Positions 1,949 to 13,403 of a stretch of DNA of 14,628 bases are shown here, in pieces (position 1 is the first letter of the stretch; every line of letters starts with the position of its first letter). The DNA lies in contig CAXHAT010000197.1 in the NCBI GenBank assembly GCA_964014485.1, positions 1 to 14,628 on the forward strand. The letters are read 5' to 3'. The position numbers and the translations under genes were made by a program. The notes beneath the pieces were generated by a model. It worked only from the letters and a program-made list of their open reading frames with translations. It did not search any database and was not told the origin of the DNA. This DNA comes from an uncultured Deferribacteres bacterium (GTDB lineage: Bacteria; Zhuqueibacterota; Zhuqueibacteria; Zhuqueibacterales; Geothermadaptataceae).

Positions 1949-2527
1949 ATGTCTTCTGATGAAAAAACCTGCCAGATGAAAGTCGTTTTAAGGGGAAGCA
2001 AACCGCCGATCTGGAGGCGGCTGTGGGTCTCCCCGAGTTCAAGCTTGTTTGATTTGCACAAAATCATTCAGACAGCGATGGGCTGGGTAGGCGGTCATTT
2101 ACACCAGTTCACCATAGACGGCCAGGAGTACAGCATCCCCAGTGACGACGATTGGGAGCCCGTCATGGATGAAAGGCGAGTCCGGATTGCGGAAATTAGT
2201 CCGGTTGAGGGACGAAAATTCTTTTACCTCTATGATTTTGGGGACTCATGGGAACACGAAATCATCATTGAGAAAACCTTGCCCGCGGTTCCCAACGTTC
2301 AATATCCTTGCTGCGTAAAAGGGAAGCGCGCCTGCCCCCCGGAAGACGTTGGCGGCGTATGGGGTTTTGCGGAATTTTTGGAAGCCATGAACGACCCGGA
2401 ACACGAAGAGCACGAATCCTATCTGGAATGGTTTGGCGGAGAATTCGATCCGGAAGCGTTCGATCTGCAAGAAACGAATCTGGCTCTACGGCATATCGAT
2501 CAAAAGGAATGGTGGGAAGACATTTAA
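1949..2527 (+). CDS. Plasmid pRiA4b ORF-3 family protein
   Basis: Motifs KPPIWRRL, LHKIIQTAMGW...HLHQF, YLYDFGDSWEH, GKRACPPEDVGGVWG and FDPEAFD. GGGAG upstream. Confidence 0.92.
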   Translation: MSSDEKTCQMKVVLRGSKPPIWRRLWVSPSSSLFDLHKIIQTAMGWVGGHLHQFTIDGQEYSIPSDDDWEPVMDERRVRIAEISPVEGRKFFYLYDFGDSWEHEIIIEKTLPAVPNVQYPCCVKGKRACPPEDVGGVWGFAEFLEAMNDPEHEEHESYLEWFGGEFDPEAFDLQETNLALRHIDQKEWWEDI

Positions 2528-2875
2528 CCGACATTCCGCACGTTAATCGGCGCATTTGAAATCATTTGTTGACGGAATGCTTTTCCGACGATTTTGGCTT
2601 GTTTGCAATTTACAGGCGCACCTGATATGGTTTTGTTTTTCATTAGCCCCGGTTTTCAAGCCGGGGTTTTGGTAAAATCACTCCCATTTTCTCCCGCTGA
2701 GTTGACTCGGCGGGAGAAAAAAAAGAGCGTCCGACCGGCTCCACGCGCTGAAGCGCGCGGCTAATGAGACGTCCGGGCAGTCAGGACTGAACGATCCGGA
2801 ATTCGCCAACAAGTCTCCTAAAGGACGGTGCTAATAAGAAAAGGGAATTTTCAAATCTCGTATGCGGAATGTCGG
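2528..2875. mobile_element. MITE-like element A (348 bp) with perfect 13-bp TIRs, enclosing a REPIN
   Basis: CCGACATTCCGCA (2528-2540) and TGCGGAATGTCGG (2863-2875). Flanks ATTTAA (2522-2527) and ATTTGA (2876-2881) match 5/6. No credible ORF inside. Confidence 0.7.
2640..2767. repeat. REPIN-like doublet (TAGCC/GGCTA type) with central hairpin
   Basis: TCATTAGCC (2640-2648) pairs with GGCTAATGA (2759-2767). Each end carries a GC-rich hairpin (CCCCGGTTTTCAAGCCGGGG; CCACGCGCTGAAGCGCGCGG). Central stem TTTTCTCCCGCTGAGT-TG-ACTCGGCGGGAGAAAA at 2687-2720. Confidence 0.8.
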
Positions 2876-2908
2876 ATTTGAAGTCTCCAGCGGTAACTAT
2901 CTGAAAAT

Positions 2909-4342
2909 TCAGCGTTTCAAAAAGCTGTGCGCGTAGCCGCCAAATATTGTAACTGAAGCGCCGATAAGCACAAACCACGGCCAGGCAATCGCCGTCTCAC
3001 TCAGCCAAATAAAAAACATCACTGCAACGCCCGTGAACATGGCGGCAATAGCCATCGTTGCATCGACGTTTTTGAACCAGCGCGCTAAAAGGAAAATCCC
3101 GAGCAGCCCGCCGTAAGTGAAGCTCGCCACCGCCAACCCGGTCTCCAGAACATTGCCCCAACTGCCCGCGAAAATGGCGGTGACCACCAACAACCCTCCC
3201 CAAAAAATGGTGGATAAACGCGAAATTTTCAATTCCAACACCGCATCCCAACTTTGCGCCCAGCGCGTCGATTTTAGCCAATCGACAACGGTTGACGAGC
3301 CAAGCGCGTTGAGCGAAGAACTGAGCGTCGACATGGCGGCGGCAAAAATAGCGGCGATGATCAGTCCGCCGACGCCGGGCGGCAATTCGTTGGCGATAAA
3401 CAACGGGAAAATTTCATCATTTCGCGAGACGGACAATTTCTCTGGAAAAGCTTGATAAAAGGCAAAAAGCAAAACGCCCATAAATAGAAAAAATATAAAT
3501 TGCACGATGACAAAAACCCCGGAGCCGACGATGGCTTTTTGGCTGTCTCTCAAGTTGCGGCAACCCAAAAGCCGTTGCACCATAAGTTGGTCTATGCCGT
3601 GCGAGGCCAACCCAAAAACAGTTCCCCCGATAATCCCCGACCAAATAGTGTAGCTTTTTGAAAAGTCAAAATCAAAATCCAGCCATTCCAGCTTTCCCGC
3701 CGTTCCAGCGAGGCTCATCGCTTGATCCCAGCCGCCCGGAAGTCTGTCGACAATAATCAACATTGCGATTCCGGCTCCTGTGAGATAAACCAGGAACTGG
3801 ATCACGTCAAGCCAAACGACGGCTTTTAGCCCGCCGAAATAAGTGTATAAAATCGTGACCGCGCAGATTAAGCCGATGGAAACGGGATAGCTCAAACCGG
3901 TGAGAATTTTGAGCGGGATGGCAGTGGCGAAAAGACGAACGCCGTCGGCAAGCAAGCGCGTGACCATGAAAATGCCGGAGGACGCCTTGCGTGCATTGTC
4001 GCCGAAGCGTTGGTAAATAAAATCGTAGGCCGTGGTCGCATTTTGGGAAAAATAGCCGGGCAAAAAAATGAGCGCGACCAAAATGCGCGCCAGCAAATAG
4101 CCGAGCGTGATTTGTAGAAACATCAAATTGCTGCCGTAGGCCAGCGCCGGAATGCCGATAAACGTCAACGTCGACGTTTCAGTCGCAACGACGGACAGAC
4201 TAACGGCAAGCCACGGCAGTTCGCGATTGCCCAGAAAATAATCCTGTGAGGAGCGCTGCGATCTGGCAAAATAAAAACCGAGTCCGGCGCTGGCGCAAAC
4301 GTAGACGACGAAAATGAAATAATCTATTGTGGAAAAGCCCAT
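2909..4342 (-). CDS. Sodium:solute symporter (SSS/SLC5 family)
   Basis: Motifs DYFLGNRELPW, SVVATETSTLTFIGIP, YTYFGGLKAVVWLDVIQF, DQLMVQRLL and AAAMSTLSSSLN, with many TM segments. ATG 4342 (MGFSTIDY) chosen because the ORF-track start at 4387 lies inside a TIR. Confidence 0.95.
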   Translation of the reverse strand: MGFSTIDYFIFVVYVCASAGLGFYFARSQRSSQDYFLGNRELPWLAVSLSVVATETSTLTFIGIPALAYGSNLMFLQITLGYLLARILVALIFLPGYFSQNATTAYDFIYQRFGDNARKASSGIFMVTRLLADGVRLFATAIPLKILTGLSYPVSIGLICAVTILYTYFGGLKAVVWLDVIQFLVYLTGAGIAMLIIVDRLPGGWDQAMSLAGTAGKLEWLDFDFDFSKSYTIWSGIIGGTVFGLASHGIDQLMVQRLLGCRNLRDSQKAIVGSGVFVIVQFIFFLFMGVLLFAFYQAFPEKLSVSRNDEIFPLFIANELPPGVGGLIIAAIFAAAMSTLSSSLNALGSSTVVDWLKSTRWAQSWDAVLELKISRLSTIFWGGLLVVTAIFAGSWGNVLETGLAVASFTYGGLLGIFLLARWFKNVDATMAIAAMFTGVAVMFFIWLSETAIAWPWFVLIGASVTIFGGYAHSFLKR

Positions 4343-4373
4343 ATCCGAAACAAACGACGTTTTATAGTTATTA

Positions 4374-4545
4374 CTAACATTTCTCACTTCGTTTTAGATG
4401 CTATAAACTTCTATTTGTAATAACTTTAGACTCAGGCGTTCAGTGATAATCTTCGAACAATGCTTGAGCGTGACCCTGGTTTCTGTTTTTCATTCTTTGC
4501 CTGAAAAACTATGAATTAGCCTCAATTTGAAGTGAGAAATGTTAG
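4374..4545. mobile_element. MITE-like element B (172 bp) with perfect 17-bp TIRs and 6-bp TSD
   Basis: CTAACATTTCTCACTTC (4374-4390) and GAAGTGAGAAATGTTAG (4529-4545). TTATTA on both sides (4368-4373, 4546-4551). An 18-bp TIR with a 4-bp TATT duplication is an equivalent reading. Confidence 0.85.
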
Positions 4546-4555
4546 TTATTATTAA

Positions 4556-4731
4556 CTGATGTTACGCACGCCGAAAACATAAGGAGTGCAAAGCTTGCTT
4601 TGCCTTTCACTCGCCGCCGACAAGAAAAGCGGCGAATTCAGACTTCTTGGCGCAGAAGTTCGAAAATATCCGCAACTGAATAGCAAGGCAAGCCTTGCAC
4701 TCCATTTTCTGTATGATCCGCGTAACATCAG
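4556..4731. mobile_element. MITE-like element C (176 bp) with 12-bp TIRs and 7-bp TSD, enclosing a GGAGTGC-type REP doublet
   Basis: CTGATGTTACGC (4556-4567) and GCGTAACATCAG (4720-4731). TTATTAA at 4549-4555 and 4732-4738. Confidence 0.85.
4583..4703. repeat. REP doublet (GGAGTGC type), copy 1, inside element C
   Basis: GGAGTGCAAAGCTTGCTTTGC (4583-4603) inverted against GCAAGGCAAGCCTTGCACTCC (4683-4703). Each unit is itself a hairpin. Confidence 0.85.
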
Positions 4732-4754
4732 TTATTAATTGGAATGGCGGCAAA

Positions 4755-4859
4755 GAGTGCAAAGCTTGCTTTTCAAGCCGCCTGAAGAAAAAACACGGAA
4801 ATACTTGAACAAAAATATTCAAAGCCTTCAACGAATCAGCAAGGCAAGCCTTGCACTCC
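4755..4859. repeat. REP doublet (GGAGTGC type), copy 2, outside element C
   Basis: GAGTGCAAAGCTTGCTTTTC (4755-4774) and GCAAGGCAAGCCTTGCACTCC (4839-4859). The latter is identical to 4683-4703. Confidence 0.85.
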
Positions 4860-4887
4860 TTTTCCTGAGTTCCATTCGCAGCTTGAA

Positions 4888-5436
4888 TCATTCCTGCGCA
4901 ACATACCGCCCTTCAAAAAGCATAATATTTTGGTGCTCGCCTTCGCCGTAAACGCCGACGCCGTCGATGAAATATGTTCTTTTCCCGTTAATCACAGCGA
5001 CATATTCTTTGAATGATTCCTGCAGGTTTGATGCAGGAATTTTGCGCCACCAGGTCAGCCGCCCGGCATCGTACGTGCCGAAATGGGTCGTCTCTTCGCC
5101 GGAGCGTTTTTTCACCACGCAAAAAAGCGTATCGTTGCGCACGAAGTTTTGCGCGTCAGACATTTCAACCCGTCCGTCGCTGAAAGTATCGCTAAAAACG
5201 CCCTTTTGCACCTCGCCGTCCCACCAATATTTTTGATGTACAACGAGCGAATCGATAAACGTGCCGTCTTGCTTGTACATTTTAAACACGCCGCGCCACT
5301 CGCCGTCGAACGGGCCAAAAACCTCGCGCGCTCGCGTATCTTGCTGCGCTTGTGCGGAACACCCGAGCATCAGTGCAAAAATGAAAAGGCGAAAGATAAA
5401 AAATGCTTCTGCCCTTCCGAATTGGTCATGTCTCAT
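4888..5436 (-). CDS. Hypothetical exported protein, possibly a lipoprotein, beta-rich
   Basis: 182 aa ORF starting 1 bp after the upstream gene's stop. Hydrophobic N-terminus ends in LMLGC then AQA. FDGEWRG and alternating beta-strand patterns suggest a lipocalin-like barrel (inference). Confidence 0.7.
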   Translation of the reverse strand: MRHDQFGRAEAFFIFRLFIFALMLGCSAQAQQDTRAREVFGPFDGEWRGVFKMYKQDGTFIDSLVVHQKYWWDGEVQKGVFSDTFSDGRVEMSDAQNFVRNDTLFCVVKKRSGEETTHFGTYDAGRLTWWRKIPASNLQESFKEYVAVINGKRTYFIDGVGVYGEGEHQNIMLFEGRYVAQE

Positions 5437-5437
5437 T

Positions 5438-6304
5438 CTAAAATGTCAAAGCATTTAGGTGGTTGAAGCTCGCCTCAATGCTCGCGAACGGGTCTTCGGG
5501 GCGATCATGCTCGACAAAATAATGCGTCAATCCGGCTTGCTCAGACTTCGCGAAAATTTGCGAAAAGTCGATTTGCCCTTTGCCGACGTCAACCATATTG
5601 CCGTCTTCCGTCATGTCTTTGACGTGGCACAATTTAAAGCGCCCGGCATGTTCCTGAAAGTACTTGAACGGGTCGTGACCGGCTTTTGCAATCCAGAACA
5701 AATCGATTTCTATGTCGACAAGGGCGGCGTCCGCTTCGGCGAGCAAAATATCGAAAGGCAGTTGTTCTTCAACGGCTTCAAACTCAAAATCGTGGTTATG
5801 ATAGCCAAACCTCAATCCCGCTTCCCGGCATTTTTCCCCGGCTTTATTTAAATCAGCCGCGAGCTGCTTCCAAGAGTCAGCCGTCGCGAATTGCGCTATG
5901 TTGACCCAGGGACAAATCAAATATTTGTGTCCGACGATCTGCGCCGTCTCAATCAATTGATCGATATTATTTTGAACAGCCGGTAGTTGCACATGCACCG
6001 CCGGGGCCGTCAAACCGACTTCATCGAGCAACGCACGAACGTCTTCTGGTTTGCGATTGTAGTATCCAGCAAATTCCACTTCCTTGTAGCCGATCTCGGC
6101 AACTTTCCGAATCGATCCTTCAAAATCTTCCGCCATTTTGCTGCGGATCGTATAAAGCTGCACGCCAATTTTTTCAAGTTTTCGAGCCGTTTCTCCCGCA
6201 GCGTTTTGCGAGCCGGTTTCGCTGCTTTGGCAACCGACGTTCGCCAGATATACCCCGCCTGCAACGGCCGTCGCGGATTTTGCTAAAAATGTTCTTCTTT
6301 TCAT
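5438..6304 (-). CDS. Tat-signal sugar phosphate isomerase/epimerase (xylose isomerase-like TIM barrel)
   Basis: Tat motif KRRTFL; IGVQLYTIR, GYKEVEFAG, GYHNHDFEF, HVKD, VGKGQIDF and FVEHD. RBS GAGGGAG upstream. Confidence 0.92.
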   Translation of the reverse strand: MKRRTFLAKSATAVAGGVYLANVGCQSSETGSQNAAGETARKLEKIGVQLYTIRSKMAEDFEGSIRKVAEIGYKEVEFAGYYNRKPEDVRALLDEVGLTAPAVHVQLPAVQNNIDQLIETAQIVGHKYLICPWVNIAQFATADSWKQLAADLNKAGEKCREAGLRFGYHNHDFEFEAVEEQLPFDILLAEADAALVDIEIDLFWIAKAGHDPFKYFQEHAGRFKLCHVKDMTEDGNMVDVGKGQIDFSQIFAKSEQAGLTHYFVEHDRPEDPFASIEASFNHLNALTF

Positions 6305-6367
6305 TCTCCCTCACTCTCAAAAAATTTCCAAAACGTTCTTTCAAAAGCCCCGACAAATAAAACGCAT

Positions 6368-7357
6368 TCACGAAGAAGCACAAGGGGAATCCTCCGGTTT
6401 AGGCAAAGAAAAATCTTCATCTTGAGGCTTCGTTTTCGCTTTTGAAACGGGCTCCCGCATTTTCGGTTTGGAGGACAAAACGAGTATCACGGCAAGCACA
6501 ATCAGCCCCAACGCAACAAAAGAACTGGCCGAAACTTGCTCGTCCGCCAGCAGCCAGCCAAGGAAAACAGCGACGGCGGGATTGACAAATGCGTAAGTCG
6601 TCGCTTTGGACGCGCTCGTGTTTTGAAGGAGCCAATAGAAAGCGGAAAGCGCGACAACCGACCCAAAAACGATAAGATAGAGTAACGCCCAAAGCGATTC
6701 TTCGGAAACGTTGCTCCACGAAAATTGATCTGTTTCACCGACAACCAATCCGACGATAATGAGCAAAACGCCGCCGCAAATCATCTGTATTGCGCCGCTC
6801 AAAAAGCTCGATTTGGGCAGCGGCGCACGTTTCGAATAAATCGATCCGGCAGCCCAGAGCAGCGCCGCCAAAACAATCGTCATACTTCCGATGAAATCGG
6901 CGTTCCCCGCTTCATCGAAAGGGTTTAACAAGAGCAGCAGCCCGATCATGCCGAACACAATGCCCGCTCCGTTTTTCACGGTCAACTTTGCGCCAAGGAA
7001 CAGCCATTCCATAAAAAAAATCCACAATGGACTTGTCGCCACAAGCGTAGCCGCCAAGCCTGACGAAACGTATTTTTCCGCCCAGGAAACCAGGCCGTTG
7101 CCGCCGAGCAGCAGCAGTCCGCCTAAAATGAACGCGGTTTTCCAGTGTTGCGTCGTCAATCGTTCGGATGTTCGGCTGCGCATAAACAAAAACAAAGCTA
7201 CGCCCGCGACAAGGAACCGCACACCTGCCATTAAAAACGGCGGCAGCGTTTCGACGGCGAATCGGATCGCCAGGTACGTCGAACCCCAAATCACGTAAAC
7301 TGACGCAAAAGCGAGTATAAATTTTAGGCGTGGAGAATGATCAGCGGAAATACTCAT
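6368..7357 (-). CDS. yedA: EamA/DMT-family transporter, YedA-like
   Basis: VYVIWGSTYLAIR, PPFLMAGVRFLVAG, GGLLLLGGNG and YAFVNPAVAVFLG; about 10 TM segments. ATG 7357 with GAGG 6 nt upstream. Confidence 0.88.
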   Translation of the reverse strand: MSISADHSPRLKFILAFASVYVIWGSTYLAIRFAVETLPPFLMAGVRFLVAGVALFLFMRSRTSERLTTQHWKTAFILGGLLLLGGNGLVSWAEKYVSSGLAATLVATSPLWIFFMEWLFLGAKLTVKNGAGIVFGMIGLLLLLNPFDEAGNADFIGSMTIVLAALLWAAGSIYSKRAPLPKSSFLSGAIQMICGGVLLIIVGLVVGETDQFSWSNVSEESLWALLYLIVFGSVVALSAFYWLLQNTSASKATTYAFVNPAVAVFLGWLLADEQVSASSFVALGLIVLAVILVLSSKPKMREPVSKAKTKPQDEDFSLPKPEDSPCASS

Positions 7358-7380
7358 CAACAACCTCGCGAATTATTTCA

Positions 7381-7615
7381 CTGATGTTACGCGGCTGGCC
7401 AATAATGGATGCCGTAGATTGGTTTCCAGTTGCATCGAATACTGCAATTGAAAATAGAAATGCTTGACCCTCAAAAACGTTTTTCAAGGTCATTCCTGCG
7501 CAGGCAGGAATCCAGAAAATGGTGCACGGCCCCTGGATTCCTGCTTCCGGAAAAATGACGCGTAGAGCAAAGCTTTTAGTCAAATACCATATTATTGGCA
7601 AGCGCATAACATCAG
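7381..7615. mobile_element. MITE-like element D (235 bp), same TIR family as element C, 8-bp TSD, enclosing a GTCATTCC-type REP doublet
   Basis: CTGATGTTACGC (7381-7392) and GCATAACATCAG (7604-7615, 1 mismatch). The IR extends imperfectly through GCCAATAAT/ATTATTGGC. TTATTTCA at 7373-7380 and 7616-7623. Confidence 0.88.
7489..7559. repeat. GTCATTCC-type palindromic REP doublet
   Basis: GTCATTCCTGCGCAGGCAGGAATCCAG (7489-7515) inverted against degenerate CTGGATTCCTGCTTCCGGAAAAATGAC (7533-7559). Another unit occurs at 14548. Confidence 0.85.
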
Positions 7616-7875: not shown

Positions 7876-7903
7876 GTAGGGGTTCAAAATTTTGAACCCC
7901 TAC
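7876..7903. repeat. GTAG-type REP, perfect 28-bp palindrome
   Basis: GTAGGGGTTCAAAATTTTGAACCCCTAC with GTAG/CTAC termini typical of RAYT-associated REPs. Confidence 0.85.
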
Positions 7904-10323: not shown

Positions 10324-10411
10324 ACCCACCCCTAACCCTTCCCAGGAGGGGACTCCATGCGACCGCGAAACGGTCGACCAATTCCCCTCCTGGGAGGGGT
10401 TAGGGGTAGGT
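10324..10411. repeat. REP-like long inverted repeat (CCCCTAACCCCTCCC type)
   Basis: ACCCACCCCTAACCCTTCCCAGGAGGGGA (10324-10352) versus TCCCCTCCTGGGAGGGGTTAGGGGTAGGT (10383-10411), 27/29 complementary. Inner hairpin CGACCG-CGAAA-CGGTCG at 10360-10376. Confidence 0.85.
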
Positions 10412-12817: not shown

Positions 12818-13022
12818 ATGCTCCGAAGGAGCAAAACAACATAGCCCAGGGCAGTGCCCTGGGTTCAAAAACATACCAAGCTTCCCCCAAAGCCCTGAAA
12901 GGGCGGAACATGTGGGTGCATAAAAGTTTGTCTCGCCCTTTCAGGGCTTTAAAAATACAATTTGGGTTGCTCGTTTTCCAGGGCGTTGCCCTTCGCTATT
13001 ACATTCCGCCCCTTTGGGGCTG
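12818..13022. repeat. REPIN (AGCCCAGGGCAACGCCCTGGG / GCCCTGAAAGGGC type), copy 1
   Basis: Nested modules GCTCCGAAGGAGC, TAGCCCAGGGCAGTGCCCTGGG (12842-12863), AGCCCTGAAAGGGCG (12891-12905), then CGCCCTTTCAGGGCT (12934-12948), CCAGGGCGTTGCCCTTCGCTA and GCCCCTTTGGGGC. Confidence 0.9.
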
Positions 13023-13084
13023 GTTTTTGGATTGTTCAGGACTTCCAACCCGGTACGATCCAGATGATTTTTGAAGATCGATCT

Positions 13085-13284
13085 ATGCTCCAAAGGAGCT
13101 AAACAATACAGCCCAGGGCAACGCCCTGGGTTCAAAAACATCCCCGCCTCCCTTGAAGCCCTGAAGGGGCGGAACATGCGGGTGCGTAAAAATTTGTCCC
13201 GCCCTTTCAGGGCTTAAAATCTGTCTTGTTGCTGGTTACCCAGGGCGTTGCCCTGGGCTATGATATTTCGCCCCTTTGGGGCTG
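13085..13284. repeat. REPIN, tandem copy 2
   Basis: Same six modules in the same order as 12818-13022, with a similar central spacer (GGAACATGCGGGTGCGTAAAAATTTGTC). Confidence 0.9.
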
Positions 13285-13403
13285 ATTTTCGTTTGTTGCC
13301 GAAAATGTCATCCAGTAAGCGCCTATTTTGCCGAATTCACGGGGCAGGCAAAATAGATTCCCCCTGAATGCCATGAAACGGGACGAAAATCGACTGCGAA
13401 TTT

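Follow-up and report, generated by a model that had tools for sequence, protein, structure and literature searches.

The window analysed here, a 14,628-nucleotide stretch of DNA from an uncultured Deferribacteres bacterium (contig C197 of the source assembly G000, 8.4 Mb in 465 contigs), contains four short gene-less elements, A, B, C and D, three of which enclose hairpin doublets of repetitive extragenic palindromic (REP) sequences between terminal inverted repeats (TIRs). The question raised by this locus is how REPs have come to lie between transposon-like ends, and by which enzyme such composites are moved. The four elements, their TIRs and their AT-rich flanking duplications had been described in an earlier note on this DNA, and all coordinates, ends and duplications were verified in the window sequence. 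A to D are copies of three unrelated miniature transposon families. The explanation favoured here, with a probability of about 0.8, is that they are gene-less copies bearing the ends of three DDE transposase families, mobilised in trans by the matching transposase, with the doublets of A, C and D as likely fixed passengers. The features concerned are given below (MITE stands for miniature inverted-repeat transposable element, IS for insertion sequence).

1949-2527, plus strand: pRiA4b-ORF3-like gene, upstream of A
2522-2527: left 6-bp target duplication of A, ATTTAA, holding the stop codon of that gene
2528-2875: element A, IS1634-type MITE of 348 nt with 13-bp TIRs; its ends also delimit an IS1634 element of 1757 bp flanked by a 6-bp duplication
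2640-2839: cargo of A, TCATTAGC-type hairpin units and, in the centre, a GC hairpin (fold z -4.5)
2683-2820 (boundaries approximate): right half of a nested MITE of a fourth type, X, which is found inserted in REP hairpins and encloses a TCATTAGC doublet itself
2876-2881: right duplication of A, ATTTGA, with one mismatch to the left copy
4374-4545: element B, MITE of 172 nt with the 16-bp TIRs of an IS4-type (NF049925) element, flanks TTATTA, REP-free
4546-4555: overlapping duplications joining B and C, TTATTATTAA
4556-4731: element C, IS701-type (NF049921) MITE with 12-bp TIRs and the 7-bp duplication TTATTAA, of a 13-copy subfamily
4583-4703: cargo of C, a GGAGTGC REP doublet (RAYT-associated REPIN)
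4755-4861: free degenerate GGAGTGC doublet just beyond the right end of C, outside the cassette
7381-7615: element D, IS701-type (NF049921) MITE of 235 nt, flanks TTATTTCA, of an 18-copy subfamily
7489-7559: cargo of D, a GTCATTCC doublet, which is an NTS/SRM (CGTC-type) repeat

When the ends were counted in G000 with one mismatch tolerated, 20 inverted pairs were recorded for A (of 84 ends), 9 for B (of 21) and 164 for the end common to C and D (of 620), so that the genome-wide recurrence of TIR pairs, which the earlier note had proposed as a check, was confirmed. Copies shorter than 600 nt account for 19, 9 and 163 of these pairs, respectively, and many unpaired ends point towards contig breaks. 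Exact duplications flank 11 of 18 A copies (6 bp), 7 of 9 B copies (7 bp) and 67 of 163 C/D copies (7 bp), as compared to means of 0.7, 0.7 and 1.4 obtained with reshuffled flanks; the number of distinct duplications among the exact ones is 11, 7 and 43, respectively. The preferred target is N-T-W-W-A-N (6 bp) for A and TTANTAA (7 bp) for C/D. No open reading frame (ORF) of at least 70 amino acids (aa) lies wholly within any of A to D, and an Rfam comparison of the four gave no family match. The families of A to D display features by which MITEs are recognised, namely TIRs, a length below 500 bp, differing target duplications, the lack of a transposase gene and dispersed multicopy occurrence.

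All nine B copies are exactly 172 nt long at identities of 70-100%, and copies that are 100% identical bear different duplications. The lack of any indel in these copies, despite identity down to 70%, suggests a spacing constraint between the ends. A C-type end abuts B at two of the nine B sites. B was also considered as a small coding element and rejected, stop codons being present in seven of the nine copies. The 163 short C/D elements cluster into groups of 38, 27, 19, 18 (containing D), 13 (containing C), 6, 4, 3, 3, 3, 2, 2 and 2 copies with 23 singletons, and the clusters enclose different hairpin doublets. C-type elements of just 43, 59 and 67 nt (L149, L150 and L148, respectively) with 6-7-bp duplications were also noticed. 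The expansion of these ends is lineage-specific: the C end occurs 0-1 times per genome in 40 relatives and the A end 0-1 times per genome in 166 genomes of the phylum, and the B end is present in 19 of those 166, mostly within one family. As a lead only, it is mentioned that the heptamer TAACTGA is often formed by target and end together (window 4553-4559 and many C/D ends); the available part of PMC4853749 cites this heptamer as abundant in Beggiatoaceae, and Beggiatoaceae are well represented among the matches to the C/D end listed from GTDB.

A joint movement of shell and cargo is made likely by the position of the REPs within the copies. When five subfamilies were aligned, the two REP feet occupied constant columns in 111 of 112 copies (16/16, 38/38, 27/27, 17/18 and 13/13). 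Two copies of the C subfamily are 100% identical and bear the duplications TTACTGA and TTAGGAA, respectively, and the C of the window is 98.8% identical to a copy on contig C40 bearing another duplication. The fixed position of the cargo, taken together with identical composites at different duplications, suggests that shell and cargo likely moved together; identical units of TIR and REP at several loci with different duplications had been proposed earlier as support for co-mobilisation, and identical or near-identical ones were indeed found. A correlation of arm and cargo distances was recorded for the C subfamily (Mantel r 0.86, p 0.0005) and for cluster 0 (r 0.62), and the arms of D occur almost only beside a TIR (34/34 and 35/36 matches). 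The TCATTAGC doublet type is accompanied by 6-bp duplications in A shells and by 7-bp duplications in C-type shells; duplication length therefore follows the shell and not the cargo. The presence of identical REP-free B copies at different duplications further indicates that a REP is not required for movement. These observations suggest that, in A, C and D, the hairpin doublets are likely to be carried along as fixed passengers of a mini-transposon.

The ends of the cassettes match those of known ISs, as had been supposed when they were called non-autonomous and IS-derived: the A end matches IS1634 (NF033559), the B end the IS4-type clade NF049925 and the C/D end the IS701-type clade NF049921. 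Elements of 1.73-1.76 kb coding for IS1634 transposases are bounded by the A end, one of them being L418 (1757 bp, 6-bp duplication TTATAG, 344 bits to NF033559); since the search pattern for the A parent fixed part of the target, the target agreement with L418 is not independent. The NF049921 profile scored above cut-off in 10 of 35 genomes, 34 of which had been picked because they hold such MITEs. Seven NF049921 elements of 1105-1192 bp are bounded at either terminus by the 12-bp C/D end, and exact 7-bp duplications flank three of the seven; other elements of this clade end in different sequences. A thus shares its TIR, 6-bp duplication and target preference with full-length IS1634, and C/D share their TIR, 7-bp duplication and target preference with full-length NF049921 elements. 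In the genome G132, the B end overlaps the stop codon of an NF049925 transposase of 479 aa, the right end of B being exact in L345/L474, where the contig stops before the left end; in L476, a fragment with 57% identity is preceded upstream by a related B-like end. The autonomous ISs that the earlier note had suggested looking for were therefore obtained in other genomes, at full length for A and C/D and as one end for B, and none was found in G000.

Several candidate parents were rejected. The long TIR pairs on C388 and C25 are MITEs with other ISs inserted in their REPs, and the apparent long TIR pair on C63 consists of two separate MITEs. Viral contigs gave 42 matches to the A end and 7 to the B end with no terminal pair around a transposase, and these were read as chance; the B-parent protein had only two weak 19-residue matches among these contigs. 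In a further genome, G041 (L159, L184), the dispersed copies of an NF049921 IS, of which more than 40 are listed, contain two TGA codons in frame, which stand at the same positions in the two copies compared; amplification of an inactive copy in trans is one reading of this.

The four ends had been aligned earlier as one related family, and it could accordingly be supposed that one transposase family recognises all of them. The loose 12-nt pattern common to the ends is in line with this: the consensus of the four elements occurs nine times in the window as compared to 0.48 expected, and eight of the nine are the eight ends themselves, an enrichment that is not independent because the consensus was fitted to these ends. 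NF049925 and NF049921 proteins also cross-match, with E values of 1e-23 to 1e-28 that stay below cut-off; of the three parents, only those of B and C/D are distantly related, and a remote relationship of their ends is possible. There are nevertheless three distinct parents, with transposases of 350, 479 and 554 aa, and the single consensus hence merges three IS families. The duplication length and target of A differ as well, and pairs of mixed ends are not needed for the window elements. Recognition of all four ends by one transposase family is thus extremely improbable, and the ends belong to three transposase families instead.

Folding of the interiors gave z values of -4.5, -5.4 and -2.9 for A, C and D, respectively, which contain hairpin doublets, and of -0.4 for B, which has none and in whose nine copies no REP feet were found; the doublets earlier seen in C and D were thereby confirmed. 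The TCATTAGC doublet is carried by all 19 paired A copies. A repeat related to it flanks a 140-aa Y1 transposase gene in the relative G005, the protein scoring 82.7 bits as IS200-like, below the RAYT cut-off, and the A-type repeat was not seen at the Y1 loci displayed for G000. GGAGTGC doublets of the type enclosed in C stand on both sides of a 181-aa RAYT gene (NF047646, 101 bits) on contig C241, so that the suggested search for RAYT genes was positive, and 140 of the 195 matches to the GGAGTGC motif lie outside shells. The GTAG tetranucleotide is absent at the foot of the C hairpin, which reads GGAGT before the stem. The near-identical C copy on C40 has a neighbouring free GGAGTGC doublet (C40:39662-39787) like that of the window, and such a doublet adjoins 2 of 13 elements in the C subfamily and 5 of 150 in the other subfamilies.

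Compared by eye, 25 of 28 positions of the repeat enclosed in D agree with the NTS consensus given in PMC11893778, and the GTCATTCC repeat flanks a gene for a 95-aa single-domain GIY-YIG protein on contig C343, which from its size and context is probably an Ssn member. NTS/SRM repeats are tied to Ssn nucleases in the available part of PMC11893778. The D cargo is therefore tied to Ssn GIY-YIG nucleases and not to RAYT, and the assumption that its REPs are linked to HUH RAYT enzymes had to be abandoned.

The distribution of the repeats was monitored by counting a repeat as inside a shell when an end facing inward lay no more than 260 nt away. The share within shells is 224/298 for TCATTAGC, 256/414 for GTCATTCC, 89/126 for CTCGTTCCC and 55/195 for GGAGTGC, as compared to 431 of 4000 random non-coding positions, and three repeat families thus have 62-75% of their copies between DDE-type ends. 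Two GTAG-type REP families are not enriched (32/269 and 16/133 in shells, 12% vs 11% background), and two small REP families were never recorded in shells (0/12 and 0/8). The REP enrichment proposed earlier as a check consequently holds for four families, the two GTAG-type families being at background. These counts reflect the amplification of roughly ten founder composites and not hundreds of independent events. A count of 'any REP foot' in 159/163 C/D elements was set aside, as the loose 8-mer used had inflated it. A single GTAG-type palindrome occurs at window 7877-7903; its motif has 269 matches in the genome, many of which fall in a separate 116-nt TIR-bounded family (17 pairs).

Element A had been called a TAGCC-type REPIN; the hairpin doublet is present, but A is more than a plain REPIN, as it also contains one half of a nested element. 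Positions 2683-2768 share 94% identity with the cargo that a C-type element on contig C23 encloses, and the X family comprises 44 ends and 10 pairs in G000. Most A-family copies measure 260-290 nt (about 287 nt for the family), and the 348 nt of the window copy are explained by the half of a nested REP-carrying element within its second hairpin. Further short TIR-bounded families of G000 with REP-like hairpins are, besides X, an IS4-type family with a full-length parent on C25, Y and Z; in W, also short and TIR-bounded, no REP-like hairpins were seen in the copies displayed. X, IS4-type, Z and W elements were found inserted in the REP hairpins of cassettes. Full-length ISs inside the REP hairpins of C-type MITEs were observed at C25:31228-33005 and C388:410-3681.

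It might be argued from such insertions that the cassettes are landing pads, empty shells having spread first and REP doublets having been inserted one by one by RAYT or Ssn. That second elements do enter cassettes agrees with this account, as do the free REP doublets in the genome, the two orientations of the D spacer with some swapped arms, and the A-type shells of other metagenomes, which are mostly REP-free (long internal repeat in 2 of 12 clusters). The account is contradicted by the constancy of the cargo, each subfamily having a single type at a single position (111 of 112 copies), by the identical composites with different duplications and by the lack of any paired A copy without the doublet (0/19); the few short REP-poor C-type elements keep the family arms and look like deletion products. 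Since the cargo has one fixed position per family, insertion into landing pads is not the main route; as such it is largely refuted, and as an explanation of these elements it is unlikely. Of the two roles considered in the earlier note, vehicle or preferred landing pad for REPs, that of vehicle is retained. The composite could also be moved by the enzyme of the REP itself (RAYT or Ssn), the TIRs being incidental or inherited from a RAYT/Ssn cassette with such TIRs at its ends. G000 does contain RAYT and small GIY-YIG genes accompanied by matching repeats, and the DDE parents were not found in it, and TIR-flanked RAYT-like genes ('TIRtrons') are described in the available part of PMC3733652. 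Duplication length and target nevertheless track the shell and not the cargo, and these TIRs bracket a RAYT/Y1 or GIY-YIG gene at none of 60 loci and none of 7 Y1 loci in G000, so that this account is highly improbable; A to D as TIRtron-like shells were rejected as candidates on the same 60 loci.

Other genomes were covered by a GTDB scan for C/D ends 140-170 nt apart. At least 117 loci with such pairs were found under titles spanning about ten phyla, and among the 117 matches listed 58 have exact 7-bp duplications, 12 exact 8-bp duplications and 33 none. The matches listed form 72 unrelated clusters, of which 40 have an internal inverted repeat of at least 14 nt (REP family not assigned individually), as compared to 0/72 for shuffles, 2/72 for flanks and 10/150 for non-coding stretches of G000. 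Of the B-type shells in relatives, 6 of 14 clusters have a long internal repeat. In the genome G047, a 1110-bp NF049921 element occurs alongside REP-filled MITEs of two forms: in five copies, 36-39 nt of the IS right end, including the last codons, are joined to the cargo, and in three copies 93 nt of the IS left end (86/93 identical). In both forms the IS sequence halts at the foot of the same hairpin and is followed by the same doublet, which occurs free too. These junctions suggest, from their sequence, a repeated joining of IS ends to the REP foot. A 280-bp family of G047 with 'two left ends' is weak (18 vs 15 matching bases) and was not relied on.

In the favoured reading, every subfamily would go back to a single capture and owe its later copy number to transposition, and the transposase would since have been lost from the genome or remain unassembled. 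Capture may have consisted in an IS end becoming joined, by REP-triggered deletion or recombination, to a REP hairpin at its foot, which is put at about even odds. Shared REPs may later have allowed arm swapping and spacer inversion, and may have attracted more nested elements. That REP hairpins are a general MITE-making device, and DDE transposases a major unrecognised REP-multiplying route across many phyla, is put forward tentatively as a rather doubtful extension. If it were general, REP-rich genomes would keep producing REP-filled MITEs from many unrelated IS families, and the CGTC/NTS class without a known transposase would also be multiplied by DDE transposases.

A number of observations weigh against the favoured reading. 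None of the three parent transposases was found in G000, an assembly of 465 contigs with many ends at contig breaks. Homology to eight NF049921 parents beyond the TIR was found at 0/320 ends in G000 and 1/234 outside ends, and the lack of C/D homology past the TIR designates these elements as type II MITEs; remnants of the transposase C terminus in the arms were likewise found in 0/160 cases in G000 and in 1/117 among the outside matches listed. B is linked to its parent by a single right end and by a related left end that lies on another contig. Arm and cargo distances correlate weakly for A (r 0.37) and for cluster 1 (r 0.19), and in the D subfamily not significantly (r 0.13, p 0.11). Both orientations of the spacer and at least one copy with an exchanged arm were recorded in the D subfamily; the cargo was hence also partly rebuilt in place. 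The G047-type junction is one case among the 117 outside matches listed. The empty sites hoped for earlier were not recovered: no joint skipping the whole element is listed in three runs of one study, and a close relative with the gene order of the window was not found. Movement was therefore deduced from the copies and their duplications.

In the window, A starts directly after the stop codon of the pRiA4b-ORF3-like gene and lies between convergent genes; B and C, in head-to-tail order, precede a gene for a sodium:solute symporter, and D lies upstream of an EamA gene. The position of A would suit a selective explanation, by which REP-filled shells are retained by the host as terminators or RNA-stabilising elements and their excess is due to retention, and transcription-linked roles of REPs are proposed in the available part of PMC3733652. 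B, C and D are placed upstream of or between genes in other arrangements, and retention by the host is very unlikely as the cause. No host function is claimed for the composites. Elsewhere in the window, a 182-aa ORF at 4888-5436 (minus strand) has no Pfam match, and a ACCCACCCC-type hairpin doublet at 10324-10411 separates two genes of a polysaccharide cluster. Two tandem units of about 266 nt, made of TAGCCCAGGG-type hairpins, occupy 12818-13289; similar units are cargo of the X family, and one arm (13239-13283) is matched by Rfam Acido-Lenti-1.

The spread of REP doublets is treated as unresolved in the discussion of PMC3116915, of which, as of the other papers cited below, the available parts were compared. 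Spread by a DDE enzyme can now be tested directly, using a transposase of 350 aa and an end of 12 bp. Caution is also required, as some 'REP families' and structured-RNA calls are MITE interiors. No account of the C/D end sequence, or of REP-filled MITEs as a general pattern, was found in full-text searches, which lay outside ISfinder, subscription journals and supplements, where supplementary MITE catalogues could hold such families; the main text of the MITE survey PMC11602168 contains no REPIN or RAYT term, and the pattern is not described in the parts of PMC3184786 and PMC4853749 compared.

The cassettes have the same termini as IS701-type NF049921, IS1634 NF033559 and IS4-type NF049925 elements and, for A and C/D, the same duplication lengths, but they differ in having no transposase gene and in that the parents were not found in G000. 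Like the type II prokaryotic MITEs of PMC10969869, they are shorter than 500 bp, with TIRs, direct repeats, AT-rich intergenic targets and parent conservation confined to the TIR; the difference is that their interiors are repeats of a separate HUH- or GIY-YIG-linked system. The interior of the BrickBuilt MITE of Porphyromonas gingivalis (PMC4596501) is also a repeat of another kind, a tandem minisatellite and not a REP doublet. The C cargo resembles the REPIN/RAYT systems (PMC3116915, PMC3337134, PMC6006769) in being an inverted doublet that flanks a RAYT gene and is freely dispersed, and differs in that some doublets lie here within DDE-type TIRs and target duplications and that GGAGTGC lacks the GTAG tag. 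The D cargo, with its 25/28 agreement and its position beside a small GIY-YIG gene, resembles the NTS/SRM-Ssn system (PMC11893778). CGTC repeats without a dedicated transposase, and REP dimers that always lie within longer palindromes, are reported in PMC3733652; the passages of both papers compared do not place these repeats in IS-derived shells, in contrast to the 256/414 recorded here.

The closest published likeness is QMITE2 of Coxiella burnetii (PMC5896051), a MITE of about 190 bp with TIRs, 7-9-bp direct repeats and a REP inside that is targeted by another IS, for which REP-only forms exist too. QMITE2 is one family in one species, for which the part of the paper compared gives no parent transposase, and its free REPs are read as truncated MITEs; the present elements comprise several shells of three IS families with identified parents and several REP families, one cargo of which also flanks its own RAYT gene. 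The parts are therefore of known kinds and a REP-containing MITE is already published; what is added here is the assignment of the four cassettes to three IS families, the identification of parents for A and B, a quantitative co-mobilisation test and the snapshot of the junctions.

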